Origin: an uncultured Chthonomonadaceae bacterium
GTDB lineage: Bacteria; Armatimonadota; Chthonomonadetes; Chthonomonadales; CAJBBX01
Length of the DNA stretch: 64,000 bases
Direction: 5' to 3'
Assembly (NCBI GenBank): GCA_964429855.1
Contig: CAYSDM010000012.1
Location: 4,203 to 68,202, forward strand
A program made the translations under genes and the position numbers. Position 1 is the first letter of the stretch; each line of letters opens with the position of its first letter. Below are positions 22,987 through 64,000 of this stretch, piece by piece. The notes under the pieces are model-generated. The model searched no databases, was not told where the DNA came from, and saw only the letters and a list, made by a program, of their open reading frames with translations.

Positions 22987-23271
22987 CTCAGCCTCTCTAT
23001 CCGTCTCTCGCGGGATGGTTTCGGGTTTGCCCGCCCTTGCGCGGTTCCGGCGCACGCGAGGGGAGAGACGCGAGCATCTATTTGTGGCTCTGTTCTCCGA
23101 GTGGAGGAGACAGTCCTGCCGTTTTGTGTGTGTGCGGCGGGAGAAGACTGTATTCGCATCCATCTCCCGAACATCGAAACGAAGGTGGCGAAGAGAGGAG
23201 GAAGGAGGAGGCGCAGGGCGAAGAGAATCCTGAAAGAGATTCATCACTACCTTCGGAGAGATGCAAGCGTT

Positions 23272-26200
23272 ATGAAAACCCCGATGACTCCGCCTTCCCG
23301 TCTGCACTCGCCCCGAACCGCTCTGATGCTCTGCCTGCTGTTGACCATGCTGCTGCCGGTCGCCGCACAGCAGAGGCGCGCCGTTCGCCCGGCGAAGCTG
23401 CAGTTCAACCGCGACATTCGCCCGATCCTGTCGGAAAACTGTTTTCCCTGTCATGGACCCGACAGAAACACCCTGAAGGCGAACCTGCGCCTCGATATTC
23501 GCGAGTCGGCGGTGCAGCGCGGAGCGATTGTTCCGGGCAGACCGGCGAAGAGCGGGCTGGCGGCGCGCATCCAGACGAAAAATCCCGGACTTATTATGCC
23601 GCCTCTCGCCTCGCATAAGAAGCTGACCCCGGCGCAAAAGAGTCTGCTGACGCGCTGGATAGAAGAGGGCGCGGAGTATCAGGCGCACTGGGCTTATCTT
23701 GCTCCTCGCCGTCCCGCGCTGCCCTCCGCGCGCGCCTCGCGCACTCCTCCCGACAATCCGATTGATCGTTTTATCTTTGCGCGGTTGGAGCAGAAGGGGC
23801 TGAAGCCCTCGCCTCTGGCGGATCGCCGCACGCTGATCCGGCGTCTCTCCCTTGATCTGATTGGCTTGCCTCCGACGCCGCAGGAGGTCGCCGCGTTTGT
23901 GGCGGATCGTTCTCCCAACGCCTATGAGAGGCTGGTGGATCGGCTGCTGGCATCGCCGCACTACGGGGAGCGGATGGCGGTTCCCTGGCTGGACGTGGTG
24001 CGCTATGCCGATACCGTCGGGTTTCATGGCGATCAGAACCAGAACGCCTGGGCATACCGCGACTATGTGATCTCCTCCTTTAATCAGAATAAACCCTTTG
24101 ACCGGTTTACCCGGGAGCAGATTGCAGGCGACCTGCTGCCCGACGCCACCCCGGAGACGCGCACCGCAACCTGCTTCCTCCGGCTGAATATGATGACCCG
24201 TGAGGGCGGCGCGCAGCCGAAAGAGTATCTTGCCAAATACTCCGCCGACCGCGTTCGCACCGTCGGCATGGCGTGGCTTGGCTCGACCCTTGCCTGTGCC
24301 GAGTGCCACGACCACAAGTACGACCCCTTCACCCAGAAAGACTTCTATTCGCTGGCGGCTTTCTTCGCCGATGTGAAGCAGTGGGGTGTCTATGCCGACT
24401 ACGGCTATACGCCTAACCCCGATCTGCGCGGCTATGATAACGACTCGCCGTTCCCGCCGGAGATTTTTGTCGAAAGCCGCTACCTGAAACAGCGCATCGA
24501 GCAGCAGCGGCGACGATTCGCGCAGATTGCCGAAAAGACCGAATCGCTTCTACAGACCGATTCCGCGCGCGAGGCGTACTCTCGCTGGCGCGGGCAGGGC
24601 GAAGCGTTTCTCACGAAGTACCCGCAGGGCTGGCAGACGCCGTCAGATCCACAGGTAACGGTCGCCAGGACGAAGACGCCTCCCGGCTATCGGATCGAGC
24701 CGGACGGCAGCATCCTCTTCACGGAACGGGCTCCCGCAGACGCAGCCATTACGCTGACGCCCCAGACCGAATGGATCGCGGCGCTGCGTCTGGAACTGCT
24801 GCCGCATACCGAACATAACGGCTCGCTCTTTCGACCGGGCAGCGAGGGCGGATACCTCTCTCTCTCCGCATCGGTGCTGCGCGCCGATGGCAAGACGGAG
24901 AATGTCGCTTTTCGCCATGCTGAAGCTAACCACTACCTGCCGCGTTATGCCAGCAGTTTCGAGATTATCGGCGTGCAGAGCGGATGGAAACTCTCCTCCG
25001 CGCATGCGAAGGAGCCGAATGTCGCGGTCTGGTTCCCCGCGACTCCTCTGCGGCTTCAGCCGGGCGAGACGCTGACGGTGAAGCTGCCCGGTCTTCGCGC
25101 AGGCTGCGTGCGTCTCTCCGTCTCTCCTTTTCCGCTTGACCATCCGGCTTTTTTGATGACTCCGGAGTCGCTTGCCGATGCGATGCGGACACCGAACGCG
25201 CTGACCGCACAAGCCTATCTGCTCGGAACCGCCTGGAATGCGGAGGCCTTTGCGCAGGCTCGCGAACAGGAGAACGACATTCTGGGATGCCGGAAGGGGA
25301 TCACGCCCGTGATGGTGGCGGTCTCCACAACCCCGCTGATAACCCGTGTGCTTCCGCGCGGCAACTGGCAGGACGAGAGCGGTCCGGTGGTACAGCCCGC
25401 AACGCCGCATTTCCTGCCGGGAAACCGGCCGGCGAACGGCAGGCGGCTGACCCGGCTCGATCTGGCAGACTGGCTGGTTTCGCCGGAGAATCCGTTGACG
25501 GCGCGCGTCTTCATGAACCGTCTCTGGAGACAGTTTTTCGGGAGCGGATTGAGCGCGCAGGTGGAGGATGTCGGGGCGCAGGGCGAATGGCCCTCTCATC
25601 CCGAACTGCTCGACTGGCTGGCGGTGGAGTTTCGCGAAAGCAGGTGGAACGTCAAGCGTATGGTCAGGATGATCGTCCTGTCGCACGCCTACCGGCAGTC
25701 CTCCCGTCTCGATCCGAAGCTGCGCGACCTCGACCCGAATAACCGGCTGCTCTCCAGCCAGAACCCGCGAAGACTGGAGGCGGAGTTTGTGCGCGATAAC
25801 GCGCTTGCCATCGTCGGGCTGCTGAATCGCGATCTTGGCGGCCCTCCCTGCAAGCCCTATCAGCCGCCCGGCTACTACGCTAATCTCCAGTTTCCGGATC
25901 GCGACTATATCGCCAGCCGGGATGATCAGCAGTGGCGGCGCGGAGTCTATATGCACTGGCAGCGAACCTTCCTGCATCCGATGCTGGCGAACTTCGACGC
26001 GCCCTCTCGCGAGGACTGTATCGCGATTCGCACCGCCGCCAACACTCCCCAGCAGGCGCTTACTCTCCTGAACGATCCCACCTTCGTCGAAGCGGCGAGG
26101 GTCTTCGCCGTCCGCCTGCTATCCGAACCGGTTTCCGGCGATGAGGCGCGGCTGGAACGCGCCTTTCAGCTTGCTCTGGGGCGTTCTGTGAAGCCCAAAG

Positions 26201-26391
26201 AGAGGCAGTCGCTTCTTGCCTTTCTGGCAAAGATAAGACCCATCTACCGGGAGAGACCGGAGGACACGAAAAAGCTGCTGACGCTCGGTTATGCGCCCGC
26301 CCCGACCGATTCAGACCCGGTGGAACTGGCGGCATGGACGAGCGTCTGCCGTGTCGTTCTGAATCTGCACGAGACCATTACCCGCTACTGA
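23272..26391 (+). CDS. PSCyt1 (CxxCH) - DUF1549 - DUF1553 protein
   Basis: This is the real part of track ORF 21379-26391. It has a signal peptide MKTPMTPPSRLHSPRTALMLCLLLTMLLPVAAQ and a heme motif CFPCH at 23440-23454. DUF1549 motif: DNPIDRFIFARLEQKGLKPSP..LIRRLSLDLIGLPPT. DUF1553 motif: CAECHDHKYDPFTQKDFYSLAAFF. Confidence 0.9.
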   Translation: MKTPMTPPSRLHSPRTALMLCLLLTMLLPVAAQQRRAVRPAKLQFNRDIRPILSENCFPCHGPDRNTLKANLRLDIRESAVQRGAIVPGRPAKSGLAARIQTKNPGLIMPPLASHKKLTPAQKSLLTRWIEEGAEYQAHWAYLAPRRPALPSARASRTPPDNPIDRFIFARLEQKGLKPSPLADRRTLIRRLSLDLIGLPPTPQEVAAFVADRSPNAYERLVDRLLASPHYGERMAVPWLDVVRYADTVGFHGDQNQNAWAYRDYVISSFNQNKPFDRFTREQIAGDLLPDATPETRTATCFLRLNMMTREGGAQPKEYLAKYSADRVRTVGMAWLGSTLACAECHDHKYDPFTQKDFYSLAAFFADVKQWGVYADYGYTPNPDLRGYDNDSPFPPEIFVESRYLKQRIEQQRRRFAQIAEKTESLLQTDSAREAYSRWRGQGEAFLTKYPQGWQTPSDPQVTVARTKTPPGYRIEPDGSILFTERAPADAAITLTPQTEWIAALRLELLPHTEHNGSLFRPGSEGGYLSLSASVLRADGKTENVAFRHAEANHYLPRYASSFEIIGVQSGWKLSSAHAKEPNVAVWFPATPLRLQPGETLTVKLPGLRAGCVRLSVSPFPLDHPAFLMTPESLADAMRTPNALTAQAYLLGTAWNAEAFAQAREQENDILGCRKGITPVMVAVSTTPLITRVLPRGNWQDESGPVVQPATPHFLPGNRPANGRRLTRLDLADWLVSPENPLTARVFMNRLWRQFFGSGLSAQVEDVGAQGEWPSHPELLDWLAVEFRESRWNVKRMVRMIVLSHAYRQSSRLDPKLRDLDPNNRLLSSQNPRRLEAEFVRDNALAIVGLLNRDLGGPPCKPYQPPGYYANLQFPDRDYIASRDDQQWRRGVYMHWQRTFLHPMLANFDAPSREDCIAIRTAANTPQQALTLLNDPTFVEAARVFAVRLLSEPVSGDEARLERAFQLALGRSVKPKERQSLLAFLAKIRPIYRERPEDTKKLLTLGYAPAPTDSDPVELAAWTSVCRVVLNLHETITRY

Positions 26392-42077: not shown

Positions 42078-44729
42078 ATGCCTCAACCACAGAGAGCGTT
42101 TTCCGGCGCGCGCCTGCGCATATTTACGTTATTCGCCGCCTGTTTGTTAAGCCTCGCGCTGCTTATCTCGACCCTGGCGGGAGAAAGCGCGCAGGGGCAG
42201 CGAAGCCGAAATGCGCGATCCGCCTCCTCGCCGCCGGTCAGCGGACGCCTGATCCTCATGCCATCCGCCAGCGTCATTGACGGCAGCTACGGCTACCAGA
42301 CCCTTAGCGCAGTGGTGAATTCGCCGGACGGAAGCGCGCTCGATGTGACCAGACGCGCCACGCTGACCTCCTCCAACCCCGCCGTCATCCGCATTGTGAA
42401 CGGCGTTGCGCTGCCGGTGGGCGATGGACAGGCCCAGATTTCTGCCTCCCTGAACGGGCAGACCGCGCGCATGAGCATAACGGTTCGGAATACGCGCACC
42501 GACTCCGCTCTGAGCTTCGAGAACGACATCACCCCCATTGTCATCAAAAATGGCTGTGCGGGAGCCGCCTGTCATGGTGCGCAGCACGGGCAAGCCGGTT
42601 TTAAGCTCTCCCTCTTCGGGTATGAGCCGGATAAAGACCGCGAATCGATCTGGACGGCGGATCGGGGACGGCGCATCAACTCCGGCGATCCGGCGAACAG
42701 CATGCTGCTGCTCAAGCCGACGGGCGTGATCCCGCATGTGGGCGGCAAGCGTTTCTCAAAGGATTCGCTGGAGTACCGGACGATCCTGGCATGGATACGC
42801 GCCGGTGGTCCTTTGAATCCCCGTGGAAGCGCGAATACGGCGGGGAAGAGCGGCGGACCGCAGCTTGCCTCTGCCGGATCGCCTGTAAAGCCGGCGACCA
42901 GAGTGGAACTGGAAGGGATTTCGGTCTGGCCCGAAGAGCGCGTCATTACCGCGCCCAACTCCACCCATCAGATTCTGGTGACGGCGCGATTCTCCGATGG
43001 CAGCGTTCGAGACGTTACGCCGATGGCGCGCTACTTCTCGGATGATGAGGGGATCGCCTCGGTCAATGGGCAGGGAGTTGTGACTGCGCTGCGGCACGGC
43101 GAGGCGAATATTATGGTGCGCTATCACGGAAAAGCCTCTGTCGCGCGCCTGATGGTGCTCACGCAGCCCCGTCCCGCCAGCTACCCGAACATTCCGGAGA
43201 ACAACTTCATTGATAAACATATCTTCGCCAAACTGAAGAAGATGGGGATCGTTCCGGCTCCTCTCAGCACGGATGCGGAGTTCATTCGGCGCGTCTCGCT
43301 GGACATTGCGGGAGTGTTGCCGACCTCCCGGCAGGCGCGCGATTTTGTCGCCTCGAAAGATCCCAACAAACGCGCCCGACTGATTGATGAACTGCTGGAG
43401 CGTCCCGAATACCAGGACGTGATGACGATTCAGTGGAGCGAACTGCTGCGCGTCAACCGGATATTCCTGCAGGAGCAGGGCGTCCGGCAGTATACCGGCT
43501 ACATCCGCGACAGCTTTGCGGAGAACCGCCCGTTCGATCAGTTTGTCCGCGACCTGATCGGCAGCGTCGCCTATACCCGCGAGCAGGTCGAACAGAGTCG
43601 CGAGGGGCAGACCCGCGCTGAACAGGCGGTCTACCGCAAAGCCAGCGGGCACTACAGCGGGCCGATCAACTACTATCGCGTTACCGCCGACCCCACCGAA
43701 CTGACCACCTCGACCAGCCAGGTTTTCCTGGGCGTGCGGCTGGACTGCTCCCGCTGCCACAATCATCCCTTTGACCGCTGGACGATGAAGGACTTCTACG
43801 GATTCGCCGCCTACTTTGCGGGAACCGGGTATACGCCCGGCAAAGCGCGGGATGAGTTCGCCATCTATGTGGATAAAAACGGACAGATCGTCAACCCGCG
43901 CACGAATCAGGCGGCGCTTCCCAAACCGTTGACGGCGGCGGAGGGGGCGGCGGATACCGAAGGGAAGCGGCATAAGCTGCTGGCGGAGTGGATCACCTCC
44001 CGCGATAATCCGTTTTTTGCGCGCGCGGTGGTCAATCGCTTCTGGAAGCAGTTTTTCGGGCGGGGTATCGTGCATCCGGTGGACGATTTTCGCGCCACCA
44101 ATCCCCCCGTCAATGAGCCGCTGCTGGATGCGCTGGCGAAGGACTTCATCGCCAGTAACTACGATGTCAAGCATCTGATACGCACGATCTGCAATTCACG
44201 CGCCTATCAGTTAAGCGATAAGACCAACCCGACCAACGAACGGGATACCAAGAACTTCTCCCATTTCTACAGCAAACGGCTGGGACCGGAGGTGCTGTTC
44301 GACGCGATTGTTACGGCGACCGGCGTGCCGGAGAGTTTCGGCGGCGCAGTGGCGCGGAGAGCGACCAACCTGCCGGACAACAATACCCCCTCCTACTTCC
44401 TGGACGTGTTCGGGCGCAGCCGCCGACTTCAGGTGCAGGAGCGCAGCGAGGCGACCTCCATGTCGCAGGCGCTGCATCTGATGAATGGCGATACCATTAA
44501 CAATCGAATCAAGCATCCCGAAGGGAGGGTCGCCACGCTCCTGAAGTCGCAGTTAAGTCCGAAGGAAGTTATCGAGGAGTTATTCCTTTCGACACTCTGC
44601 CGCCTGCCTACTGCTCAGGAGACACAGCTAAGCCTCAAGTATATGGAGCAGTCGCCCACGCCGAAAGAGGGCTATGAAGACCTGTTGTGGGCGATTCTGA
44701 ACTCGCGGGAGTTTATCTTCAACCATTGA
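42078..44729 (+). CDS. Big_2 - DUF1549 - DUF1553 protein (PSCyt2/PSD1 type)
   Basis: Hydrophobic leader. Ig-like segment: SSNPAVIRIVNGVALPVGDGQAQISASLNG. DUF1549 motifs: CAGAACHGAQHGQAGFKLSLFGYEPDKD and NNFIDKHIFAKLKKMGIVPAP..FIRRVSLDIAGVLPT. DUF1553 motif: CSRCHNHPFDRWTMKDFYGFAAYF. Confidence 0.9.
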   Translation: MPQPQRAFSGARLRIFTLFAACLLSLALLISTLAGESAQGQRSRNARSASSPPVSGRLILMPSASVIDGSYGYQTLSAVVNSPDGSALDVTRRATLTSSNPAVIRIVNGVALPVGDGQAQISASLNGQTARMSITVRNTRTDSALSFENDITPIVIKNGCAGAACHGAQHGQAGFKLSLFGYEPDKDRESIWTADRGRRINSGDPANSMLLLKPTGVIPHVGGKRFSKDSLEYRTILAWIRAGGPLNPRGSANTAGKSGGPQLASAGSPVKPATRVELEGISVWPEERVITAPNSTHQILVTARFSDGSVRDVTPMARYFSDDEGIASVNGQGVVTALRHGEANIMVRYHGKASVARLMVLTQPRPASYPNIPENNFIDKHIFAKLKKMGIVPAPLSTDAEFIRRVSLDIAGVLPTSRQARDFVASKDPNKRARLIDELLERPEYQDVMTIQWSELLRVNRIFLQEQGVRQYTGYIRDSFAENRPFDQFVRDLIGSVAYTREQVEQSREGQTRAEQAVYRKASGHYSGPINYYRVTADPTELTTSTSQVFLGVRLDCSRCHNHPFDRWTMKDFYGFAAYFAGTGYTPGKARDEFAIYVDKNGQIVNPRTNQAALPKPLTAAEGAADTEGKRHKLLAEWITSRDNPFFARAVVNRFWKQFFGRGIVHPVDDFRATNPPVNEPLLDALAKDFIASNYDVKHLIRTICNSRAYQLSDKTNPTNERDTKNFSHFYSKRLGPEVLFDAIVTATGVPESFGGAVARRATNLPDNNTPSYFLDVFGRSRRLQVQERSEATSMSQALHLMNGDTINNRIKHPEGRVATLLKSQLSPKEVIEELFLSTLCRLPTAQETQLSLKYMEQSPTPKEGYEDLLWAILNSREFIFNH

Positions 44730-44837
44730 GATGGAAGGAACGGGCAGGAACTCGGGAACGAGGGAGCTTTAGAGAGAGAGACATCGCCGGAATCATCGCA
44801 GGCGTCGCAGAGGGGAAAGGTCGGATTCCTGTTTTAT

Positions 44838-45962
44838 ATGGGGCATGGTCACCTGACCCAGTTTCAGAATTTTCAGGAGTGTCTGCCCGCAGAATATGCG
44901 GGTCGCGCCGAGTGGATTCCGCTCTATGGCGACTCATCGGGCGATCCGCTGTGCCGTCTGCGCTTTTTTCCGCATGATTGGCGCTACTCCCGGCATCAAC
45001 GCTGGCACGCCATGACCGGCATTGCGCGTCATAAGCGGTGGGACGGGCTGTTCTTTGCGGCGGTGTCGTTCAAGTTTCTGCCGTTCTTTCGTCGCCATCC
45101 CTGTTATGTCTATCACGACCTCTCTCCCTCGCTGATCCGCGCGCTGGGCTACGATCCGCCGGTGGAGGGGAATCTGCTGCGGGCAATCAAGAACCGCCTC
45201 CAGAGCAAGACCTTTCAGGCGGCGCGTGGCGTATTCGCCATGTCGCGCTGTTCGGCGGAGGGGATCGCGCTGGACTACGGGGTGCGGCGGGAGCGGCTGC
45301 ATATCTCGCATCCAGGCGCAAACCTGAAGCGATGGCGGTTTGTGGATCGCCGTCCGCGTCCCGCGAATCGCCCTGTGCGTTTGCTGATGGTCGGCGGATG
45401 GTTCCGGCTCAAGGGCGGCAATCTGCTGCTGGAGTGGGCCGAACGGACGCAGGCGAAGAACTGGGAACTGGATATTGTCACCTGGCCCGGACAGTTTCCA
45501 GACTGGGTGGATGAGATCATGGGGCATCCCGCGCAGGACGCCGTTATCAGCCGCTCGCTGGCTCCGCGCCTGCCCAATGTGCGCATTCATGTCGGCGTCA
45601 AGGCGAACACGCCGGAGAACCTGTCGCTCTATGAGCAGGCGGACATCTACTGTCATCCGACGCTGGCGGACGGGACTCCGATTGCCATTCTGGAGGCGAT
45701 GGCGACCGGGCTTCCGGTGGTGGCGAGCGGCATCTCCGGCATCCCGGAGATGATCCGGGAGAACGAAACCGGTCTGCTGCATCGCGCCGGGGATGTGGAA
45801 CAGATGGAGGAGCGGCTCCGGTCACTGATCGAAGATGCCTCGCTACGTCTTAAACTTGGGTACGCGGCGCGCCAATCCTGTGAAGACTATTTCAATGTCG
45901 AAAGGCAACTGAGGGACATATTCACCGTGATTGACCGTGACCGGCAGACACGGGGTGAGTGA
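44838..45962 (+). CDS. glycosyltransferase family 4 (GT-B, group 1)
   Basis: C-terminal GT1 motif: ADIYCHPTLADGTPIAILEAMATGLPVVASGISGIPEMIRENETGLL. Confidence 0.85.
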   Translation: MGHGHLTQFQNFQECLPAEYAGRAEWIPLYGDSSGDPLCRLRFFPHDWRYSRHQRWHAMTGIARHKRWDGLFFAAVSFKFLPFFRRHPCYVYHDLSPSLIRALGYDPPVEGNLLRAIKNRLQSKTFQAARGVFAMSRCSAEGIALDYGVRRERLHISHPGANLKRWRFVDRRPRPANRPVRLLMVGGWFRLKGGNLLLEWAERTQAKNWELDIVTWPGQFPDWVDEIMGHPAQDAVISRSLAPRLPNVRIHVGVKANTPENLSLYEQADIYCHPTLADGTPIAILEAMATGLPVVASGISGIPEMIRENETGLLHRAGDVEQMEERLRSLIEDASLRLKLGYAARQSCEDYFNVERQLRDIFTVIDRDRQTRGE

Positions 45963-46124
45963 GGACGGACACGCTTCATTCAGATGCTGCCCTTGCTGCG
46001 TCAGCGGCGAGGGGGCAAGTCTTCATTTCGCAGACGCCGGCAGCCAACCTGTACAACGACACACTCACACATAGATCAGGCGAACAGTCAGAGGCGCGCA
46101 GGGCGCGTCGGTAAGGGGAACGGG

Positions 46125-47465
46125 ATGGATAAAAGAGAACTGGAGCAGTTGGGAAGCTACATTGACCGAACATGCGAGGGACTGACACGCCGCCAACTGC
46201 TGAAGGTGGGCGCGGTCAGCTTCCTGGGACTGGGGCTGACCGAGTTCCTGGCATTGAAGGCGGGAGCGGACGCGCCGCAGCGCCCGAAGAGCAAGGGGGC
46301 GACCCGTGATGTCTCCGTCATTCTGCTCTGGATGGCGGGGGGGCCGAGCCATGTGGACACCTTCGATCCCAAGCCCAACGCGCCGGAGACGATCCGGGGA
46401 CCATTTGAGGCGATCAAGACCGTTGCGCCCGGCATGATGCTTTCGGAGCATCTGCCGAAACTGGCGAAAGTCGCCGACCGATTCAGCATTCTGCGCTCGG
46501 TGACGCACGGCGACGGGGCGCATGAACGCGCTCAGCACTATATGCAGACCGGCTATCTGCCCATCCCGACGATGGAGTTTCCCTCCTATGGAGCCGTGCT
46601 GGCGCGCGAGCGCGGCATGGCAAACAGTCTTCCCGCCTACGTAACGCTGCTGGGACGCGACGGAGAGGGCTACGGACCGGGTTTCCTGGGCGGCTCCTAC
46701 AGCCCCTTCTTCGCGGGAAATCCCAACGACGGTAACTATCGCGTGCCTGACCTGCCGCTGCCGGAGGGCGTGAACCGCAACCGTCTGGATCGTCGGCGCG
46801 CGCTGCTGCAGACGCTCGATACGCTGGCGCGCAGCAACGATGCCGTCAAATCTATGGACACATTCTTCCATAACGCCTATAATCTGGTCACCTCGACCGG
46901 TTCTCAGCAGGCGTTTGAGATCGGGCAGGAGTCGGCGCAGATTCGCGACCTGTATGGGCGCAACCCGTTCGGACAGTCATGCCTGCTGGCGCGTCGTCTG
47001 GTGTCGGCGGGCGTTCGGTTTGTCACCATCACACAGGGCGGCTGGGATACGCATGAGAATAACTTCCCGTCGCTTCGGAACGGTCTGTTGCCGACGATAG
47101 ATCAGGGAATGAGCGCGTTGATCGGCGATCTGGCGCAGCGCGGAATGCTGGATACCACGCTGGTGATCTGGATGGGCGAGTTCGGGCGCACGCCGGAGAT
47201 CAACAAGAACCGGAATCCGGGGCGCGATCACTGGCCCAACGCGATGTCGGTGGTGATGGCGGGCGGCGGGACACGCGGCGGAATGGTGATCGGCGAGACG
47301 GACGAGCGGGCGATGGGACCGAAAGAGCGGCCGATCCATGTGGAGGATCTCGCTGCAACCATCTATCATGCGCTCGGTATTGACCCGGAGAAGGAGTATA
47401 TCACTCCGACAGGGCGTCCGGTGCGCCTCTCCAATGACGGTAAAGTGATCCGGGAGCTATTCTAG
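46125..47465 (+). CDS. DUF1501 (sulfatase-fold) protein with twin-arginine signal
   Basis: This is the real part of ORF 45984-47465, starting at ATG 46125 (MDKRELEQLGSYIDRTCEGLTRRQLLKVGAVSFLGLGL). Signatures LLWMAGGPSHVDTFD, GGWDTHEN, WMGEFGRTP and GRDHW. Confidence 0.88.
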   Translation: MDKRELEQLGSYIDRTCEGLTRRQLLKVGAVSFLGLGLTEFLALKAGADAPQRPKSKGATRDVSVILLWMAGGPSHVDTFDPKPNAPETIRGPFEAIKTVAPGMMLSEHLPKLAKVADRFSILRSVTHGDGAHERAQHYMQTGYLPIPTMEFPSYGAVLARERGMANSLPAYVTLLGRDGEGYGPGFLGGSYSPFFAGNPNDGNYRVPDLPLPEGVNRNRLDRRRALLQTLDTLARSNDAVKSMDTFFHNAYNLVTSTGSQQAFEIGQESAQIRDLYGRNPFGQSCLLARRLVSAGVRFVTITQGGWDTHENNFPSLRNGLLPTIDQGMSALIGDLAQRGMLDTTLVIWMGEFGRTPEINKNRNPGRDHWPNAMSVVMAGGGTRGGMVIGETDERAMGPKERPIHVEDLAATIYHALGIDPEKEYITPTGRPVRLSNDGKVIRELF

Positions 47466-52003: not shown

Positions 52004-53467
52004 TTACCGGGGCTTTTTAAACCGCTCCAGATTTTTCCGCGCGTCGGCGTAGTTGGGGTTGATGGCGAGCGCGCGGCGATAGCTGGCGACCGCCAGATCT
52101 GTAAAGCCCTTCTTCTCCAGCGCAACCCCCAGATTGTTATGGGCGAACTCGTAGCGCGGGTTGGCTTTGATGGCACGCTGGTAGAACTTAATCGCCTCAT
52201 CCACGCTGTTGCGCCGGTCGAAGATCAGCCCCAGCCCGTTGAGCGCTTCGGCATTTTCGGGAGCATTTTGCAGGGAGCGCGTATACTCCTTCTCGGCGCG
52301 ATCCAGGTCGTTCTTTGCCAGGTAGTGGGCGGCAAGCCAGCGGCGCACATCGGCGCGGGCAGGGTCGCGCTCCAGCGCGGTCGCCCAGGCGCGCGCGGCG
52401 GAATCGGGATCTCCTTTACGCGAATAGGCGGTCCCGAGATTGACCCAGGCGACTGCATCGCCGGGAGCGATCTCCGCCAATTGACGAAATGTCTGGACGG
52501 CCTCCTCTATCTGACCGGCTTGAAAATACTGCAGCCCGAGCGCGTTGAGGGTTTCGGCGCTGTTCGGGCGTGCCTCCAATGCGCGGCGAAAGCAGGCGAT
52601 GGCGCGTATCGGGCTGCCATTGCGAGCATACAGCATCCCCAGACTGTAGGCGGCGGCGAAGTCCTTCGGGCTGATTGCCAGCGCGCGTTCATACTGGACG
52701 ATCGCCTCCTTTTCCTGCCTCAACTGCTGAAAGGTCTCTGCCAGCGCCATGCGGGCGTCATAGTTTCGCGCATCCAGATTAACCGCCTTTAGCAGCGCGT
52801 CGCGCGCCTGCGGGTACTGCCGGAGATCGAGATATGCCAGCCCCAGGTTGAGCCAGAAGTCGGCATTGCCGGGCATAAGCTGCGTGGAGCGGATATAGGC
52901 GGCAATCGCCTCCTGCGGGCGACGTATCTGCTGGAGCGCGTAGCCCAGATTGTTCTGAATGTAGGCGTCGCGGGGATTGATCTGCGCGGCGCGGCGAAAC
53001 GCGGCGATGGCGTCCAAGAAGCGGTTTACTTTGGTATAGACGCGACCCAGATTATAGTGCGCGTTTGCGGAGTCGGGCTGAAGGGAGACGGTTTTTCGGA
53101 AAGCGGTGATCGCCTCCTGCACGCGCCCGGCGTTCAGATAGGCGTTCCCCAGGTTCATATAGGCTTCGCCATAGCTGTCGCGCAGCTTAACCGCCTTCTC
53201 CAGCGGCTCAATCGCCTCCGCGTACTTTCCCTGCCGCAGACGGATGAAGCCGATCCAGTTATAGATCAGCGGATCGTTGGGGGAGGCGGTTCGCGCGCGT
53301 TCGAACTCCTCCAGCGCCGCATCCAGCTTCCCCTCGCGATGGAGGGCAACCGCTTTGTTGAAATGCTCTGCGGTGTCCTGAGCCGCCGTGCATACCGCAG
53401 ACATGCAGAGCAGATATGCCAGCAGAATGAACGTTGGGCGCACGCATGCCTGCATCACCGCGCACAC
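52004..53467 (-). CDS. secreted tetratricopeptide (TPR) repeat protein
   Basis: About 12 consecutive 34-aa TPR units (e.g. AEALNGLGLIFDRRNSVDEAIKFYQRAIKANP). Signal-like N-terminus. GAAGGAG abuts the GTG at 53467, so the true start is probably the GTG at 53458 or the ATG at 53455. Confidence 0.88.
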   Translation of the reverse strand: MCAVMQACVRPTFILLAYLLCMSAVCTAAQDTAEHFNKAVALHREGKLDAALEEFERARTASPNDPLIYNWIGFIRLRQGKYAEAIEPLEKAVKLRDSYGEAYMNLGNAYLNAGRVQEAITAFRKTVSLQPDSANAHYNLGRVYTKVNRFLDAIAAFRRAAQINPRDAYIQNNLGYALQQIRRPQEAIAAYIRSTQLMPGNADFWLNLGLAYLDLRQYPQARDALLKAVNLDARNYDARMALAETFQQLRQEKEAIVQYERALAISPKDFAAAYSLGMLYARNGSPIRAIACFRRALEARPNSAETLNALGLQYFQAGQIEEAVQTFRQLAEIAPGDAVAWVNLGTAYSRKGDPDSAARAWATALERDPARADVRRWLAAHYLAKNDLDRAEKEYTRSLQNAPENAEALNGLGLIFDRRNSVDEAIKFYQRAIKANPRYEFAHNNLGVALEKKGFTDLAVASYRRALAINPNYADARKNLERFKKPR

Positions 53468-58436: not shown

Positions 58437-59909
58437 TCATTCGCTTTTGGTCGCTTCCAGCCGATCTATGATCTCACCGTCCGGGGCGGCGGCTTCAAAA
58501 ATCAGCGACGCGCCGTCGAGGTGAAAGATGCCCACATGATGACGGCGAATCACCCGATCCATCACGGGCGTTTCGGAGAGGAGACCCTCTTCTATGCCGC
58601 CGCCTCCGCCGCCGACAATGAAATAGTGGGTCGTCTGCCTGCCGAAGCGGAGCGTCAGCCGCTCATAGTCGTGCGTGTGACCGGAGATGACCGCGTCTAT
58701 ACCGTAAGGTTCCATCAGAGGCGCAAGCATCTCCCGGATGGGCAGGTCGCCCGTATACTCATACCAGCCCTGAGAGTAGGGAGGCTGATGAATCAGCAGA
58801 AACCGCCAGACGGCGCGGCTCCATGCCGGGGACTGGAGTTCGCGAAGAAACCAGCGATACTGTTCTGAATCGAGAGGAACGCCGGTAGGGTAGTGAAGGT
58901 TTGGATCGAGCGCGATAAAACGGGCATGACCGCACGACCAGGCGGCGTAACGCTCTCCGGTGCGGTGGCGGGCATATCTCTCCAGCCAGGGAGAGCGCAT
59001 CGTCTCAAAGCAGCCATCGTACTCATGATTGCCGCCGATCAGGATCACAGGTATCTCGGAGGCAAGCGGGTGCAGCGTCTTCAGGAGGCTTTGCCAGTGG
59101 ATCTGCCGGTCTCCCTCCTCCACCATATCGCCGACCGCCGCCACGAATGCCGGAGAGCGTGAGCGCAGTAGTTCTGTCAGAAGGCTGAGAATCTCCCAGC
59201 GATTCTGTGAGTCGGCGATAACGCCGAAGGAGAACGCGCCGCGCTCCGGCAGCGTTCTAAAGCGATATTCCGCCGAGAGGCGCGTTCCGACGCGAATCCG
59301 GTAGACGCCCTCGCTTCCCGGAGGCAGCCCTTCCAGGCGAGCGAAATGCAGGCTCCCTTCGTTCTGCGCCGCCGCCGTCTGCTCGCCGAAGCGCTCCTCG
59401 CCCCATTCAACGACGGTTTTGCAGGGAGAGGCGGTCTCCCATACCACCGTAACGCCGCGGGAGTCTGGCTCCTGCAAATAGGGACCGACGAGAATCGCAG
59501 GAGTGTTCAGACTGCCTTCCACTTCGCGCTGCGCCTTCTCTTCGGCTTCGCGCTCCCGCAGGTAGTCGTCCAGCGGGATTGCCTGTATCTCTTCCAGTCC
59601 GCCGTACATCGCCTTGTTCAGCACGCGCACCGTCAAGCGGGCTGGCTCCAGAACGGCAGGCAGAAAAAAGACCCCGTTCCGCATCGGTATCCGGGTCTCA
59701 TTCAGGTAGACCTGCGCGCCGTCGTCCGCCCGAATCTTCAATACGCATGGCTGCGGGAAACGCGCCTCCGCCACATACCAGTAGGGCGTATCCGGAGCTA
59801 GCAGGCGGTGCGGCAGGGAGACCGGTTCGCGGTGAGCGGGAAGACGGTCGAGCGTGGTATTCAGTCCCTCCGAAGGACTACCCAGGGCGAACGTCCAGGC
59901 GGAGATCAC
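58437..59909 (-). CDS. cytosolic calcineurin-like metallophosphoesterase, purple-acid-phosphatase type, with extra N-terminal beta-domain
   Basis: The Pur_ac_phosph_N-like segment GPYLQEPDSRGVTVVWET is followed by IADSQ, GDMVEEGD, GNHEYD and GHTHDYER. No signal peptide. The GTG start overlaps the upstream stop as GTGA (59906-59909). Confidence 0.85.
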   Translation of the reverse strand: MISAWTFALGSPSEGLNTTLDRLPAHREPVSLPHRLLAPDTPYWYVAEARFPQPCVLKIRADDGAQVYLNETRIPMRNGVFFLPAVLEPARLTVRVLNKAMYGGLEEIQAIPLDDYLREREAEEKAQREVEGSLNTPAILVGPYLQEPDSRGVTVVWETASPCKTVVEWGEERFGEQTAAAQNEGSLHFARLEGLPPGSEGVYRIRVGTRLSAEYRFRTLPERGAFSFGVIADSQNRWEILSLLTELLRSRSPAFVAAVGDMVEEGDRQIHWQSLLKTLHPLASEIPVILIGGNHEYDGCFETMRSPWLERYARHRTGERYAAWSCGHARFIALDPNLHYPTGVPLDSEQYRWFLRELQSPAWSRAVWRFLLIHQPPYSQGWYEYTGDLPIREMLAPLMEPYGIDAVISGHTHDYERLTLRFGRQTTHYFIVGGGGGGIEEGLLSETPVMDRVIRRHHVGIFHLDGASLIFEAAAPDGEIIDRLEATKSE

Positions 59910-62773
59910 TGACTGACCTCTGTGCCCAGCGCGCGAATCTGCTCCACAACTGCCAGCGTGCGTGCGGAGGGAGCCAGAGCAAGTTCCTCCCGCAGCGCCT
60001 CCCGGCAGGTCTCATAGGCGCGCAGCGCCTCGGCGCGCCTTCCCTGACGGGACAGCGCCACCATCCGCAGGCGGCACGCGCTTTCCAGACAGGGATCTAC
60101 CGCCAGCAGTCGTTCGGTAAATCGCTCGACTTCTGACCAGTTCTCGGCGCGATGCGCGTAGCGCGCCAGCGTCAGCAGCACCGCTGTATGCAGGTCTGCC
60201 AGCCGCCTCCGCTCCTCCTCTACCCACTCCGCCGTCCGCTCCTCCGGCAGCAGTTCGCCGCGATAGAGCGCGTCCGCCTGGAGAAGAGACTGCTGTACCG
60301 AGTCGGTAAATCCGGTCGCTTCGTGGACGGTCGACTCCGCGACCAGCCTGCGAAACGCGATCACGTCTACCTCAATGCCCGCCTGCGTGTGCAGGCAGAT
60401 CGCATCGCGGCTGATGCTCAGGAAGGTCTCGCTCTCCCCCAGCGGAGCCAGAACCGTCCGCGTCTCCGAAAGGGCTTTACGCAGGGCGTGCTGTGCGGCG
60501 GCTGCCTCTAATTGAGGCCAGAGCAGTTCACTGAGAAGGGCGCGCGGAGCGGGAATATCGGGATGCAGGCAGAGATATTGCAGCAGCATCCGATGAGAGC
60601 GACGACTCCATCCCGGCAGGCGCAGCGACGGATCGGCAGGCTCCAGCGAAAAGCCTCCCAGCAGACGCACAGAGAGACGAGGCGGGGAATTGGAAGCGCG
60701 CGTCTGTTTTGGAGAGAAGAGCAGGGTCGGGTTCGGGGCTGCCGTCTCCCCAAACGTGACCGCGTGCGCGGGAGCAGAAACAATCGCCGGGGCAGCCGCC
60801 TCTTCGCGCTTCTCCTCCAACTCATCCAGCCGGGCGCGCGCGGAAGCCAGGGCGCGTTGATCTCCCACCGCCTCATAGTCCTCCAGACTGCGAGTATAGA
60901 GACGCCGTGCCTGTTCCCGGTCGCCGCGCTGCGCGGCGATGTCCGCCAGTCCCGACGTCACGGTCGCCAGCCCGCACCGGTCGCCAATCTGTTCATAGAG
61001 CGCGCCGCAGCGCAGATAGAGCCGTTCTGCGCGCTCAAGGTCGCCCTGATCGGCGGTGACATCTGCCAGATTATTCAGGGCGATGGCGGCGCGATGCAGA
61101 TCGTTCAGTCGCTGATAGACGCTCCACGCCTCTTCCAGCAGACGCGCAGCTTCCGTATAGTCACCGCGTTTTCGTGCAAGCAGCGCCAGATTGTTGATGG
61201 TCGCGCCAATGCCCGGCTCATCACCGAGCGCGCGCCGAAGCGCCAGGCTCTTCATGTGGCATATGGCAGCCTCCTCCGGCTCTCCAAGCACATCCGCCAC
61301 ATTTCCCAGATTGTTGAGGGCGCGGGCAACCCCCGCCTGATCGTTCTGATCGCGCCAGAGGGTCAGCGCCTCCTCATAGAGCGGGCGCGCGCGGGCATGT
61401 TCGCCATGCAGGCAGAGCAGACTCCCGTAGTCGCTCAAAAGCTGCGCCAGCATCTGTAACTCTCGCAGGTTTCGCGCTCCCTCAACGGCGTGGCGGAGGT
61501 GTTCCGCCCCTTCCCGGAAAGGTCCGCGTATCTTCCAGAATTGCGCCGTCGCCGCGCCGAAAGCCGCCATCAACGCCGATTCGCCGCGCTGCTGCGCCCA
61601 TGTCATTGCGGCGCGCAGATTGTCCAGCGATTCCGCCTGCCGCGCCAGCGCCTCCGTCTGTGCGCCTTCGCGCATCTTTGCCTCGACCGCGCGCGCCACT
61701 GCCAGAAAACGGGAGGCGTGACGCTGCGTGGTCTCCTCCCACTCTCCGGCCGCCTGCGCCTGCCCGCCCGCATAGACCCGCAGGATCTCCAACATCCGGT
61801 AACGCGGCTCTCCCTCGCGCTCCTCCATCATCAGCAGCGAGTGTTCGCAGAGCGTCTCCAGAATCGGCTCTATCTCGATCCCGGCGCAGACCGCCGCCGC
61901 GTCTTCCCGATCAAAGCCGCCGCGAAAAACCGCCAGCGACCGGAATACGCGCTGCTCGGTCGGGGAAAGCATCGCATATGACCAGGCGATAGCTCCCTCC
62001 AGCGACTGCATCCGCCCGATGCCGCCGGTCAGACTCTCCTGAAGAAAGTAGTGTCCCGCCTCCAGATCGGCGAGCATCTGGCGAACGCTCTGCTGACGTA
62101 TTCGAGCGGCGGCAATCTCCAGCGCAAGCGGCAGACCATCCAGCCGACGGCAGAGCGCGGCAATCTCCTCCATTCGTTCCGGTGAAGGTCTCCAGCCTAG
62201 GTGGGCGGACTGTGCGCGTTTGACAAAAAGCTCCACGCTGTCGGTCTGTTCGCTGGCGACCGGAACGGGCAGCGGGGAGATGCGCATCACGCTCTCTCCC
62301 AGCGTTCGGAGCGGCAGCCTGGATGTGACCAGAACGCGCAGGCGTGGGCAGTCCAGGAGCAGGCGAACAATTTCCGGGGCAGCTTCGCGCAGATGCTCGC
62401 AGTTATCCAGCAGAAGCAGCACACGGTGATCACGCAGGGCGTCGCGGGCGACCGCAAGCGTTTCAGGGTTGGTGGAGGGGGGCAGTCCGATGGCTTCGCA
62501 AAGGAGGTCGCCAAAATGGGAGGGGTCGCTCAGGCGAGTGAGTTCCACAAAGAAGGCGCCGTCCGGGAACTGCGCTATTGCCTGTCGGGCGGCTTCGATG
62601 GCAAGGCGAGTCTTGCCCACTCCGCCCGGACCGACGAGTGTCAACAGACGCGCTTCCGGATCCGCCAGCAGCCGCGACAACTGCTGCAACTCCTGCCTGC
62701 GTCCCACGAAACCGGTTAACGGCGTGGGAATCGTACCGCGCAACCGCAGCATGAGAGTCCTCCCGTTCGTCAT
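59906..62773 (-). CDS. STAND-type regulator: NB-ARC-like ATPase - TPR array - C-terminal SARP module (OmpR-type wHTH plus BTAD)
   Basis: Walker A is GPGGVGKTRLA; Walker B is VLLLLDNCEH. TPR units such as ARALNNLGNVADVLGEPEEA are present. The C-terminus has VRLLGGFSL...LLQYLCLHP...LLSELWP, then a BTAD-like LYRGELLPEE...RAYETCREALREELALAPS. Confidence 0.85.
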   Translation of the reverse strand: MTNGRTLMLRLRGTIPTPLTGFVGRRQELQQLSRLLADPEARLLTLVGPGGVGKTRLAIEAARQAIAQFPDGAFFVELTRLSDPSHFGDLLCEAIGLPPSTNPETLAVARDALRDHRVLLLLDNCEHLREAAPEIVRLLLDCPRLRVLVTSRLPLRTLGESVMRISPLPVPVASEQTDSVELFVKRAQSAHLGWRPSPERMEEIAALCRRLDGLPLALEIAAARIRQQSVRQMLADLEAGHYFLQESLTGGIGRMQSLEGAIAWSYAMLSPTEQRVFRSLAVFRGGFDREDAAAVCAGIEIEPILETLCEHSLLMMEEREGEPRYRMLEILRVYAGGQAQAAGEWEETTQRHASRFLAVARAVEAKMREGAQTEALARQAESLDNLRAAMTWAQQRGESALMAAFGAATAQFWKIRGPFREGAEHLRHAVEGARNLRELQMLAQLLSDYGSLLCLHGEHARARPLYEEALTLWRDQNDQAGVARALNNLGNVADVLGEPEEAAICHMKSLALRRALGDEPGIGATINNLALLARKRGDYTEAARLLEEAWSVYQRLNDLHRAAIALNNLADVTADQGDLERAERLYLRCGALYEQIGDRCGLATVTSGLADIAAQRGDREQARRLYTRSLEDYEAVGDQRALASARARLDELEEKREEAAAPAIVSAPAHAVTFGETAAPNPTLLFSPKQTRASNSPPRLSVRLLGGFSLEPADPSLRLPGWSRRSHRMLLQYLCLHPDIPAPRALLSELLWPQLEAAAAQHALRKALSETRTVLAPLGESETFLSISRDAICLHTQAGIEVDVIAFRRLVAESTVHEATGFTDSVQQSLLQADALYRGELLPEERTAEWVEEERRRLADLHTAVLLTLARYAHRAENWSEVERFTERLLAVDPCLESACRLRMVALSRQGRRAEALRAYETCREALREELALAPSARTLAVVEQIRALGTEVSQ

Positions 62774-62951
62774 GCAGGTTACACATCGGCTTACGCTTCT
62801 CCTGCCTGCGGCGCGTTCTTTACCAGACAGCGCCGGTCTATCCGGCGCGCTTACTCTGAACCTGCCTGATAAAAATGCCGATAATCAGCCTGTCTGAATC
62901 ACGCTCGCGTTTCTCGCAGGTTCCCCCCTGCGTCTGTTGAGGAGGAGAGAG

Positions 62952-63236
62952 ATGCACTGGAGATGCCTCTGGTGGGTCACCGCCGTTTTGCTGGTGATGT
63001 CCGCCGGAATGGCTTTCGCAGATACGCCGCAGACGAATGACGGCCGTCATATATACGATCGTCCGTTACAAATACAATCTTCCGGTAATGATGGAAGACA
63101 TATCTACGACCGACCGCTGACTTCTCAGTTCGTCTCGGAGGAGGAGGCGCTGTTCTTTGTCTGGATCGCCTTCCCGACCTGGATGCCGCCCTGCTGGCAG
63201 GCATCGCAGGTCGCTGTCGGCGGGATCGCCTTCTGA
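62952..63236 (+). CDS. small secreted protein (94 aa) with two NDGRHIYDRPL repeats and a hydrophobic C-terminus
   Basis: GAGGAGGAG RBS (62939-62947), then ATG 62952. Signal peptide MHWRCLWWVTAVLLVMSAGMAFA. The repeats at 63036-63068 and 63087-63119 encode identical peptides but differ at 9 of 33 nt, all synonymous. Confidence 0.65.
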   Translation: MHWRCLWWVTAVLLVMSAGMAFADTPQTNDGRHIYDRPLQIQSSGNDGRHIYDRPLTSQFVSEEEALFFVWIAFPTWMPPCWQASQVAVGGIAF

Positions 63237-63445
63237 TCCTGATCCATTGGCGTCTATTCAGGGATTCAGGCTGTCGGAACGTCTTTCCCGATCCGCCTGA
63301 ATCTCCTGAAAGCGATTCCTCTTTTCTCCCGTCTCCCGATGCTGTTGTCCCCGCGTTCCCATAAGCAGGAGATTTGCTCTCTCAGATGCAAATAGAGGAG
63401 CAAACCGCTGCGTTCTGGTTTGCGTCTGTCTCTATGTAGCCTGAA

Positions 63446-64000
63446 ATGCATCCTCTCACATCCCTGGAATCGGATAGATTGCGCTTCGGTCTGCCGGCGT
63501 GGTATCGGTGGGCAGGTTGGCTGGCGACTCTGGGAGGCGCGGCTACTCTGGTTCTCTATCTGCTGCTGCCGACAACCGAGCAGACCTGGCGACCCGCGCT
63601 TATCGTGGGAGCCTGCACGCTGTTTATCCTTGCGTGCGGGCTGGTTCTCTGGAATGAATCTCTGGAGATCCTCCCGCAGGAAAAGGCCTTCGTCTATGAA
63701 CGGGGCTTCTGGCTTCTTCGGAAGCGGCGGCAGGGCAGCGCCAACGAATTCCGGCGGTTGATCCAGCAGACGGTGGAGCATACACTTGCCAGCGGAGAGA
63801 GGGAGAAAACGCTGATACTGCGTCTCCAGACCTCCTGGGGACAGGCGACCCTCTGGAAGACGGAAGAGGAGGAAGAGGCGCGGGAGTCCGCTTCGCGTCT
63901 GGCGGCGCGTCTGCGTCTGGCGCTGGAGGAGTCGCCCGCGAACGGTCCCGAGGCGATGCGTCCCGGTCGCGCCGCCTCGCTGCTGACCGCCGGGCTGGTG
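63446..64000 (+). CDS. hypothetical membrane protein, N-terminal part (runs off the right edge)
   Basis: Absent from the track because it is open at the edge. My translation from ATG 63446 gives MHPLTSLESDRLRFGLPAWYRWAGWLATLGGAATLVLYLLLPTTEQTWRPALIVGACTLFILACGLVLWNES... with no stop to 64000 (185 codons). An in-frame TAG lies 3 codons upstream. Two transmembrane helices. No clear SD. Confidence 0.55.
   Translation, partial: MHPLTSLESDRLRFGLPAWYRWAGWLATLGGAATLVLYLLLPTTEQTWRPALIVGACTLFILACGLVLWNESLEILPQEKAFVYERGFWLLRKRRQGSANEFRRLIQQTVEHTLASGEREKTLILRLQTSWGQATLWKTEEEEEARESASRLAARLRLALEESPANGPEAMRPGRAASLLTAGLV

Follow-up and report, generated by a model that had tools for sequence, protein, structure and literature searches.

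A conserved gene pair in Armatimonadota: a STAND-SARP regulator and a small repeat protein with a predicted signal peptide

The activating signals of the large SARP and NLR-like regulators of bacteria are still called unknown (bioRxiv 10.64898/2026.09.02.748808). A locus that bears on this question lies in a 64,000-nucleotide stretch of DNA from an uncultured Chthonomonadaceae bacterium of the phylum Armatimonadota (contig CAYSDM010000012.1, positions 4,203 to 68,202; hereafter the window), where an open reading frame (ORF) at 62937-63236 on the plus strand is divergent from a gene for a regulator with NB-ARC, TPR and SARP domains. An earlier reading of the letters of the window, called here the original prediction, had taken the ORF to encode a small secreted protein with two peptide repeats, and had suggested that this protein might be the precursor of a signalling peptide or a ligand for the TPR sensor of the regulator. 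Is this ORF a gene, does it belong with the regulator, and what might its repeats do?

Judged by its conservation, the ORF is a genuine small gene that had not been named before, and it makes up a conserved module with one other gene. The existence of homologs, the conserved synteny and the purifying selection on the repeats together support a functional coupling of the small protein to the regulator, and this part of the original interpretation stands. A third gene that had been implied to belong to the system, encoding a protein with two transmembrane segments (two-TM), does not hold its place in the wider comparison. The function proposed for the module below is one that we infer.

The small gene and its repeats

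Two close orthologs of the gene, of 80% and 90% identity, were found in the loci L001 and L007, the latter being a metagenome-assembled genome titled ‘uncultured Chthonomonadales bacterium’ of the phylum Armatimonadota. Comparison with these loci moves the start of the ORF. The ATG at 62952 is almost certainly the true start codon, since the upstream TTG codon of the window is replaced by a TAG stop codon in L007; all orthologs begin with MHWR. The gene carries the following features.

62952..63236, plus strand: small gene (protein P0001), whose translation is a pre-protein of 94 amino acids (aa); the coordinates include the stop codon
62940..62947, plus strand: Shine-Dalgarno sequence AGGAGGAG, 4 nt 5′ of the ATG at 62952, identical in L001 and L007
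62952..63020, plus strand: predicted Sec signal peptide of the signal peptidase I type, aa 1-23, with n-h-c layout and cleavage site AFA/D
63036..63068, plus strand: repeat unit 1, NDGRHIYDRPL, aa 29-39
63087..63119, plus strand: repeat unit 2, NDGRHIYDRPL, aa 46-56
63147..63233, plus strand: C-terminal hydrophobic tail, aa 66-94, rich in Trp, Phe and Pro and without a basic cluster

The product therefore has the layout MHWRCLWWVTAVLLVMSAGMAFA/DTPQT-NDGRHIYDRPL-QIQSSG-NDGRHIYDRPL-TSQFVSEEEALFFVWIAFPTWMPPCWQASQVAVGGIAF, in which the slash marks the predicted cleavage site. The strong ribosome-binding site that had been noted lies, together with a long conserved block, in a 5′ flank that is kept among the close orthologs.

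The repeats provide the clearest sign that the encoded peptide matters. The two units are spaced 17 residues start to start, as originally described, and differ at 9 of 33 nucleotides and at 0 of 11 amino acids. Seven of the differences fall on third codon positions and two on first positions (CGT/AGA and TTA/CTG), such that all nine are silent. When nine substitutions were placed at random, the peptide was left unchanged in 0 of 2,000,000 simulated sets, and conservation thus acts on the peptide, as had been argued from the silent differences. Pairwise comparisons of the window gene with its orthologs in L001 and L007 give ratios of nonsynonymous to synonymous substitution (dN/dS) of 0.12-0.27. 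Within the repeat region, the proportion of synonymous differences (pS) between the window and these two loci reaches 0.50-0.56, yet all 22 repeat residues are invariant while further synonymous changes have accumulated in the repeats of both orthologs. By these measures, purifying selection on the protein is strongest at the repeat motif.

The signal peptide, which had been claimed to end in AFA, was examined by manual inspection. In the segment MHWRCLWWVTAVLLVMSAGMAFA, a hydrophobic core of 12 residues follows a basic n-region, positions −3/−1 read A-x-A, and D stands after the predicted cleavage site. An AlphaFold2 model of the small protein, which has a predicted local distance difference test (pLDDT) score of 56 overall and is used merely as a hint of disorder, shows its sole confident helix at residues 3-23 and low-confidence helices in the tail. 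Over the repeats pLDDT falls below 50, which fits the idea that they are probably short linear motifs within a disordered exported segment.

The aromatic, hydrophobic tail that had been seen after the repeats gives a Kyte-Doolittle 19-mer score of 1.0 and a strongly favourable Wimley-White interfacial score. Likewise, the tails of related proteins (see below) stay under the usual Kyte-Doolittle thresholds for transmembrane segments, yet are strongly interfacial by the Wimley-White scale. Association with the membrane through the tail is likely, whereas a classical transmembrane helix is not assured, and the tail would probably hold the small protein at the membrane. The combination of predicted signal peptide and hydrophobic tail suggests that the small protein is exported or membrane-associated.

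Conservation of the small gene beside its regulator

Related proteins were sought among 1.84 billion representative proteins using HMMER, and also with a profile of the family. The protein P0004 was found by the HMMER search and P0007 by the profile search. Both have the architecture of the window protein. At 120 aa each, they carry G(D)G[TI]HIYD[RS] three times besides a signal peptide, and their tails abound in Pro, Met and Trp. On both contigs a divergent regulator ortholog of 58-60% identity lies ∼210-220 bp away, and the other neighbours all differ. The regulator itself was then used as the query, and small ORFs beside its most distant orthologs were inspected. Three further members were reached solely through this synteny.

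L017, 390-677, minus strand: 95 aa, signal peptide, 2 x GTHIYD
L018, 3443-3793, minus strand: 116 aa, signal peptide, 3 x [DN]GTLIYD[DE]xP with a 23-aa period
L016, 749-1027, minus strand: 92 aa, signal peptide, 2 x GTHMFD

At the L016 locus, an overlapping ORF on the opposite strand (723-1040, plus strand) had been annotated by the gene caller in place of the small gene, which suggests that the family is probably under-counted in protein databases. The family now comprises eight distinct sequences from six lineages, and exact or near-exact copies of the gene are present on several metagenome contigs. Proposed checks for homologs and for a longer gene in another frame have clear outcomes: the small gene with its motif recurs in six lineages, and a six-frame scan of all loci found paired motifs solely in these ORFs and in this frame.

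A signal peptide, a core motif present two or three times and a hydrophobic tail are common to all eight members. Their sizes range from 92 to 120 aa, and identity between lineages is only 25-36% while the repeats are retained, so that the architecture of the protein is kept down to 25% identity. The core motif across the family is G-[TR]-[HL]-[IM]-[YF]-D, in which His and Tyr can be replaced (GTLIYD in L018 and GTHMFD in L016), and the charge of the repeat segment, as read from the family sequences, is acidic to neutral. Despite divergence in sequence, every signal peptide retains a basic n-region, a hydrophobic core and A-x-A or V-x-A at −3/−1, and the best hydrophobic 15-mers score 2.0-2.6 on the Kyte-Doolittle scale. 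The tails are rich in aromatic residues and Pro, contain no or one Lys/Arg residue, and terminate in F, W or P.

The partner in this arrangement is encoded on the opposite strand.

59906..62773, minus strand: STAND regulator with NB-ARC/AAA NTPase, TPR sensor, OmpR-type winged helix-turn-helix (wHTH) and BTAD (SARP) domains by Pfam, 955 aa as called

Pfam places NB-ARC/AAA_22 at residues 30-233, TPR_12 and TPR_10 at 443-630, a weak Trans_reg_C match at 728-782 and BTAD at 802-947; the TPR_12 match has E = 1.7e-38 and is accompanied by other TPR matches. From the alignment of orthologs the regulator probably starts at Met8 (62752) and has 948 aa. The distance of 178 bp given originally for the divergent genes is correct for the ATG at 62773 and becomes 199 bp if Met8 is the start.

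Orthologs of the regulator align over its full length at 46-88% identity and are 900-948 aa long in the relatives. Only seven clusters in the regulator search combined full-length coverage with 46-88% identity or more. The remaining matches were of 40% identity or less, and nearly all covered about two-thirds of the protein, namely its NB-ARC/TPR part; P0127, with 33% identity and 99% coverage, was among the outgroups checked. The small gene adjoins every full-length regulator ortholog examined, in six of six lineages, always divergently and with a gap of about 170-220 bp. The synteny with NB-ARC/TPR/BTAD genes that had been put forward as a check is therefore present throughout, and the regulator is the sole conserved neighbour of the small gene across lineages. 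Conversely, paralogous regulators of 33-36% identity in four loci (L019, L020, L021 and L022) were checked and lack an analogous small repeat ORF.

Searches of Pfam, NCBIfam and PDB returned no meaningful match for any of the eight members or for the family profile, and the family is undescribed in the libraries searched. A UbiA match with E = 0.003, whose 17 bits fall short of the cut-off of 34, is an artefact of a hydrophobic segment, and none of the eight members matches the Pfam RHS_repeat model (YD/RHS repeat) at E ≤ 0.1. C-terminal sorting signals consist of a signature motif and a transmembrane helix, followed by a cluster of basic residues at the very C-terminus. This reading of the tails was rejected given their near lack of Lys and Arg and their F, W or P ends, and no member matches the sorting-domain models of NCBIfam (PEP-CTERM, GlyGly-CTERM, LPXTG and similar).

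Several proteins share the motif with the family and were set aside. The sole match in a motif scan of metagenome contigs was an ABC-transporter ATPase in L015 (528-1634, plus strand), which contains DGTHIYDRPTTSFVASFVG and carries ‘DGTHIYDRP’ inside a normal cytoplasmic ATPase domain. It was treated as a chance match; DGTHIYDRPTTSFVASFVG resembles the ‘(E/D)IYxRP...F(V/I)A.F(I/V)G’ stretch of MalK/PotA-type ATPases, and is a trap for searches that use the motif alone. The HMMER match P0003 is a protein of 897 aa with nine tandem Cys-containing domains of ∼95 aa, each bearing SGNNG[VI]HIYDAP, which is near SGNDGRHIYDRP of the window protein. It was not taken as a homolog, as its match reflects a short motif multiplied by repeats within a different architecture. 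The likeness is probably convergence on a beta-strand motif. The giant repeat proteins P0005 and P0006, again with a multiplied short motif and another architecture, were likewise not treated as homologs.

The DNA between the two genes and the segment behind the small gene hold further elements.

62877..62886, plus strand: conserved upstream box GCCGATAATC, consensus RCCGAYAATC, a putative −10 region
62789-62808 and 62849-62868, plus strand: two copies of a 20-nt direct repeat, 80% identical and spaced by 60 nt, in the intergenic region that both genes share
63258..63309, plus strand: hairpin with a stem of ∼14 bp and a variable loop, 22 nt past the stop codon (RNAalifold, −22.4 kcal/mol)

In five of the six lineages the RCCGAYAATC box is found at a distance of 74-126 nt upstream of the start codon, compared with 0.03 such 8-mers in shuffled controls. 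No pair of −35 and −10 elements with sigma-70 consensus was detected in the upstream region of the small gene. A conserved −10-like box without such a pair is the pattern expected of an activator-dependent promoter, and GCCGATAATC is the probable −10 region of one. The second copy of the 20-nt repeat ends 11 nt before the GATAAT hexamer (62880-62885), and the repeats, which are reported for the clade of the window only, are partly conserved in L001 and L007; they are candidate binding sites for the regulator. A search upstream of the box for SARP-type heptamer repeats with 11-nt spacing gave only weak repeats spaced by 10 nt that are not common to the lineages. Past the gene, the stem of the hairpin is invariant among the window, L001 and L007 and its loop has diverged, and this structure is probably a terminator or an element that stabilizes the transcript. 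An inverted repeat (CGCAGG-ttcccc-CCTGCG, window 62918-62935, plus strand) is present in the presumed 5′ untranslated region just before the ribosome-binding site; it is kept in L001 and L007 and could modulate translation.

The other neighbours of the pair vary. The two-TM gene (window 63446-64000, plus strand) runs past the end of the window; in L001 (10643-11641) it encodes a 332-aa product with faint TPR matches. It is followed by genes for an unknown protein of 370 aa and a SurA-like peptidyl-prolyl isomerase. This arrangement is kept in the closest relatives only (L001 and L007), unrelated genes take its place in the other lineages, and by this comparison the two-TM gene is outside the core module. 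On the other side, a metallophosphoesterase gene (window 58437-59909, minus strand), whose product has a purple-acid-phosphatase-like N-terminal domain, overlaps the stop codon of the regulator by 4 nt, which makes co-transcription of the two probable. The gene after the regulator varies by lineage, being the metallophosphatase in the window and elsewhere an esterase, an unknown protein, an M1 aminopeptidase or a dihydroorotate dehydrogenase (DHOD) electron-transfer subunit, and this position looks like a variable ‘cargo’ slot.

Other genes of the window were recorded in passing. A protein of 487 aa consisting nearly entirely of TPRs (TPR_1, E = 2e-80) is encoded at 52004-53467 on the minus strand, ∼6.4 kb from the regulator. 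At 42078-47465 on the plus strand are genes for a Planctomycete-type PSCyt2/PSD1 protein (DUF1549/DUF1553, 883 aa), a GT4 glycosyltransferase and a DUF1501 protein (493 aa), and beyond them are genes for an M42 aminopeptidase, an SDR protein, a DUF6785/DUF6784 membrane protein and a MarC protein. The largest ORF of the window, with 1670 aa, is at 21379-26391 on the plus strand.

Possible roles of the repeat protein

The reading that we tentatively favour, and whose probability we place a little short of even, joins both genes in a loop. The SARP domain of the regulator would activate the small gene from its promoter with a conserved −10-like box and no −35 consensus, much as AfsR of Streptomyces does at afsS, which adjoins afsR and is a direct AfsR target with poor −35 and −10 elements (PMC10936776). 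Indeed, SARPs work at promoters with poor −35 elements (PMC10936776). The repeated motifs would in turn be multivalent ligands for the TPR sensor of the regulator, like the AfsS repeats for AfsR. The Kd for AfsS and AfsR is 4.7 uM, and AfsS that lacks its repeats no longer binds (PMC10832544), a precedent that makes direct binding of the repeats plausible here.

If export of the small protein takes place, only two forms of the motif could come into contact with a cytoplasmic sensor, namely a precursor that has not yet been exported, or fragments that envelope proteases free and the cell re-imports. With these as the only routes, the two genes would make up a loop of feedback or signalling, akin in its working to a receptor-propeptide cassette of the RRNPP type, with a STAND-class receptor. 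The more specific claim that the TPR sensor has the exported repeat peptide as its cognate ligand, which would reach it through protease release and re-uptake or as unexported precursor, seems to us unlikely though far from negligible. Both ‘signalling-peptide precursor’ and ‘TPR ligand’ are hypotheses.

Several observations weigh against such a loop. AfsS has no reported signal peptide, and an exported ligand for a cytoplasmic sensor requires the extra steps of processing and uptake, for which no conserved gene is found near the module in the loci compared. When the neighbouring genes of the window were scanned over ∼20 kb for transporters of peptides, for proteases and for maturases, only the cytoplasmic M42 aminopeptidase emerged, and it is not conserved with the module. 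The host organisms appear to be diderm, given the flagellar L- and P-ring genes located close to the module in L012; with such an envelope, a pheromone of 9-11 residues that diffuses freely is less straightforward. The conserved hydrophobic tail is foreign to classical propeptides, and the core motif is fairly conserved across lineages, whereas RRNPP signals typically show rapid pherotype diversification. Divergent regulator-target pairs also occur without any ligand relationship. Finally, the TPR region of the regulator is not conserved above its other domains across lineages, and given this lack of a special per-domain pattern, TPR conservation is uninformative.

The main rival to the loop is that the small gene is solely an output, that is, the dedicated target of the regulator and a membrane-associated envelope protein, while the TPRs sense an unrelated cue. 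The repeated motif would then bind a periplasmic or outer-envelope partner or serve as a protease substrate. This explanation is quite possible, although we hold it at clearly less than an even chance. The divergent regulator-target arrangement with an activator-type promoter speaks for it, the signal peptide and tail put the repeats outside the cytoplasm and away from the regulator, the acidic-to-neutral repeat segment fits the periplasm, and uptake and processing genes are not conserved nearby. However, a signal integrator of 950 aa whose only linked gene encodes one disordered protein of 70 aa would be unusual, and in the AfsR/AfsS precedent the small repeat protein beside a STAND-SARP does bind its regulator. 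Also, the replaceable His and Tyr of the motif argue against metal binding by His or chemistry specific to Tyr.

The units might instead be multiple core peptides of a ribosomally made and post-translationally modified peptide (RiPP) or other bioactive peptide, modified by a maturase encoded elsewhere and then released. Multi-copy units that resemble cores within a small precursor suggest this, as do weak NCBIfam matches of the NB-ARC/TPR region of the regulator to HaaT (E = 1.5e-45) and FxSxx_TPR (E = 4e-23) and a B12/radical-SAM gene ∼3.6 kb from the regulator in L016. These matches are far under the curated cut-offs, with 156 against 1125 bits for HaaT and 82 against 300 bits for FxSxx_TPR, and across the six lineages the neighbourhood holds no conserved gene for a maturase, protease or exporter. 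Moreover, RiPP precursors seldom carry Sec signal peptides, and the residues that might be modified vary (Y/F and H/L). We therefore consider a RiPP improbable.

A signalling role could also reside in the hydrophobic tail, with the repeats serving as processing or recognition elements. SHP and XIP are short hydrophobic pheromones with genes divergent from rgg, and the tail, which is variable, rich in Trp, Phe, Gly and Val and ends in ...VAVGGIAF, may resemble them; the small gene is similarly divergent from a putative receptor. Selection, however, is strongest on the repeats and not on the tail, and the regulator has no homology to Rgg. SHP propeptides also use PptAB rather than a Sec signal peptide, which they lack (PMC10075063), and an active tail is in our judgement very improbable. 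That the ORF is spurious, its repeat arising by chance or at the level of nucleotides, or belonging to a gene read in another frame, is refuted by the silent substitutions, the architecture and ribosome-binding site conserved among orthologs and the restriction of the motif pair to this frame at all loci, even though databases annotate the product only as a ‘hypothetical protein’.

Returning to the more specific claim of an exported cognate ligand, its consequences would be considerable if it proves true. It would represent the first transcription factor of the STAND/NLR type that senses a peptide and the first RRNPP-like loop of export, processing and sensing outside Bacillota, in a diderm lineage of Armatimonadota. 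Modules of the AfsR/AfsS type would thereby be linked to cell-cell or envelope signalling, and if it is the precursor that is sensed, the regulator would report on secretion or on the state of the envelope.

Comparison with known systems

The RRNPP(A) cassettes of Bacillota include Rap/Phr, NprR/NprX, PlcR/PapR, Rgg/SHP and AimR/AimP (PMC10075063; PMC11343458), and RRNPP_detector recognizes such quorum-sensing systems by five criteria (PMC10075063). The small protein is propeptide-like in size, with 94 aa (92-120 aa in relatives) compared with the criterion of 10-100 aa, and the n-h-c layout and an A-x-A or V-x-A, which bear on the Sec criterion, are seen by manual inspection in all eight family members. 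The receptor candidate is intracellular, carries TPRs and adjoins the small gene among variable flanking genes, and RRNPP receptors are often transcription factors. Tandemly duplicated pheromones are also known in the Phr propeptides of this group (PMC11343458). The differences are substantial, however. RRNPP receptors have 250-500 aa, whereas this regulator has 948-955 aa with a STAND NTPase and SARP output, and no RRNPP-specific Pfam or NCBIfam model (e.g. TIGR01716), which would indicate homology to Rap, Rgg, NprR, PlcR, PrgX or AimR, matches it. In addition, the host is apparently diderm and not a member of Bacillota, and the propeptide candidate has a long hydrophobic C-terminal tail. Our literature search found no paper that joins the phrase ‘STAND NTPase’ with quorum sensing or signalling peptides.

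STAND proteins with NB-ARC and TPR domains that are tied to small precursor genes are also represented by HaaT (cyclophane/triceptide) and the FxSxx-COOH TPR proteins. Those systems employ radical-SAM maturases, whereas a maturase is absent from the conserved neighbourhood here, and the regulator differs from those TPR proteins by its DNA-binding SARP module.

The nearest of the known systems is AfsR/AfsS of Streptomyces, and the likeness to it concerns layout, synteny and repeats, per published descriptions. Like AfsR, the regulator has an OmpR-type wHTH, BTAD, NB-ARC/P-loop and TPRs, and like afsS, the adjacent small ORF encodes fewer than 200 aa with low overall conservation and, in this family, two or three repeats. 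AfsS of S. coelicolor has 63 aa (PMC10832544; PMC10936776; bioRxiv 10.64898/2026.09.02.748808; PMC2267785). AfsS-like proteins share 17-38% identity, yet always keep their two to five repeats (PMC10832544), and their orthologs need synteny plus repeats to be found (bioRxiv 10.64898/2026.09.02.748808). The same is evident here, where sequence searches failed to reach three of six lineages and the caller overlooked one gene, and small partners of this kind are likely under-counted.

Other properties set the pair apart. AfsS has been described as soluble and ‘sigma-like’, whereas the small protein has a predicted Sec-type signal peptide and a hydrophobic tail. The domains are ordered NB-ARC-TPR-SARP here and SARP-NB-ARC-TPR in AfsR; the regulator scores 128.7 bits with the AfsR equivalog model NF053617 of NCBIfam, compared with a cut-off of 1430. 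Moreover, afsS is downstream of afsR whereas the small gene is divergent from its regulator, and AfsR/AfsS belong to Actinomycetota whereas this module is found in Armatimonadota. The module is, by analogy, one that works like AfsR/AfsS and the RRNPP cassettes and is a member of neither, because the regulator falls short of the AfsR equivalog model, has a permuted domain order, is non-homologous to RRNPP receptors and is twice their size, and because the phylum is Armatimonadota.

These findings suggest that the pairing of a STAND-SARP with a small repeat protein is not confined to Streptomyces. The module extends a well-known but mechanistically unresolved class of regulators with a conserved and testable example, and its apparently exported version of the pairing could connect these regulators with peptide signalling or with sensing of the envelope in a phylum that is little studied. 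As a compact set of two genes, with a short linear peptide (core GxHIYD) as the obvious candidate partner, it would offer a simple system in which to ask how TPR sensing turns on a STAND transcription factor. The regulator and its peptide partner are probably a pair like AfsR and AfsS, unusual in that the peptide protein is predicted to be exported.

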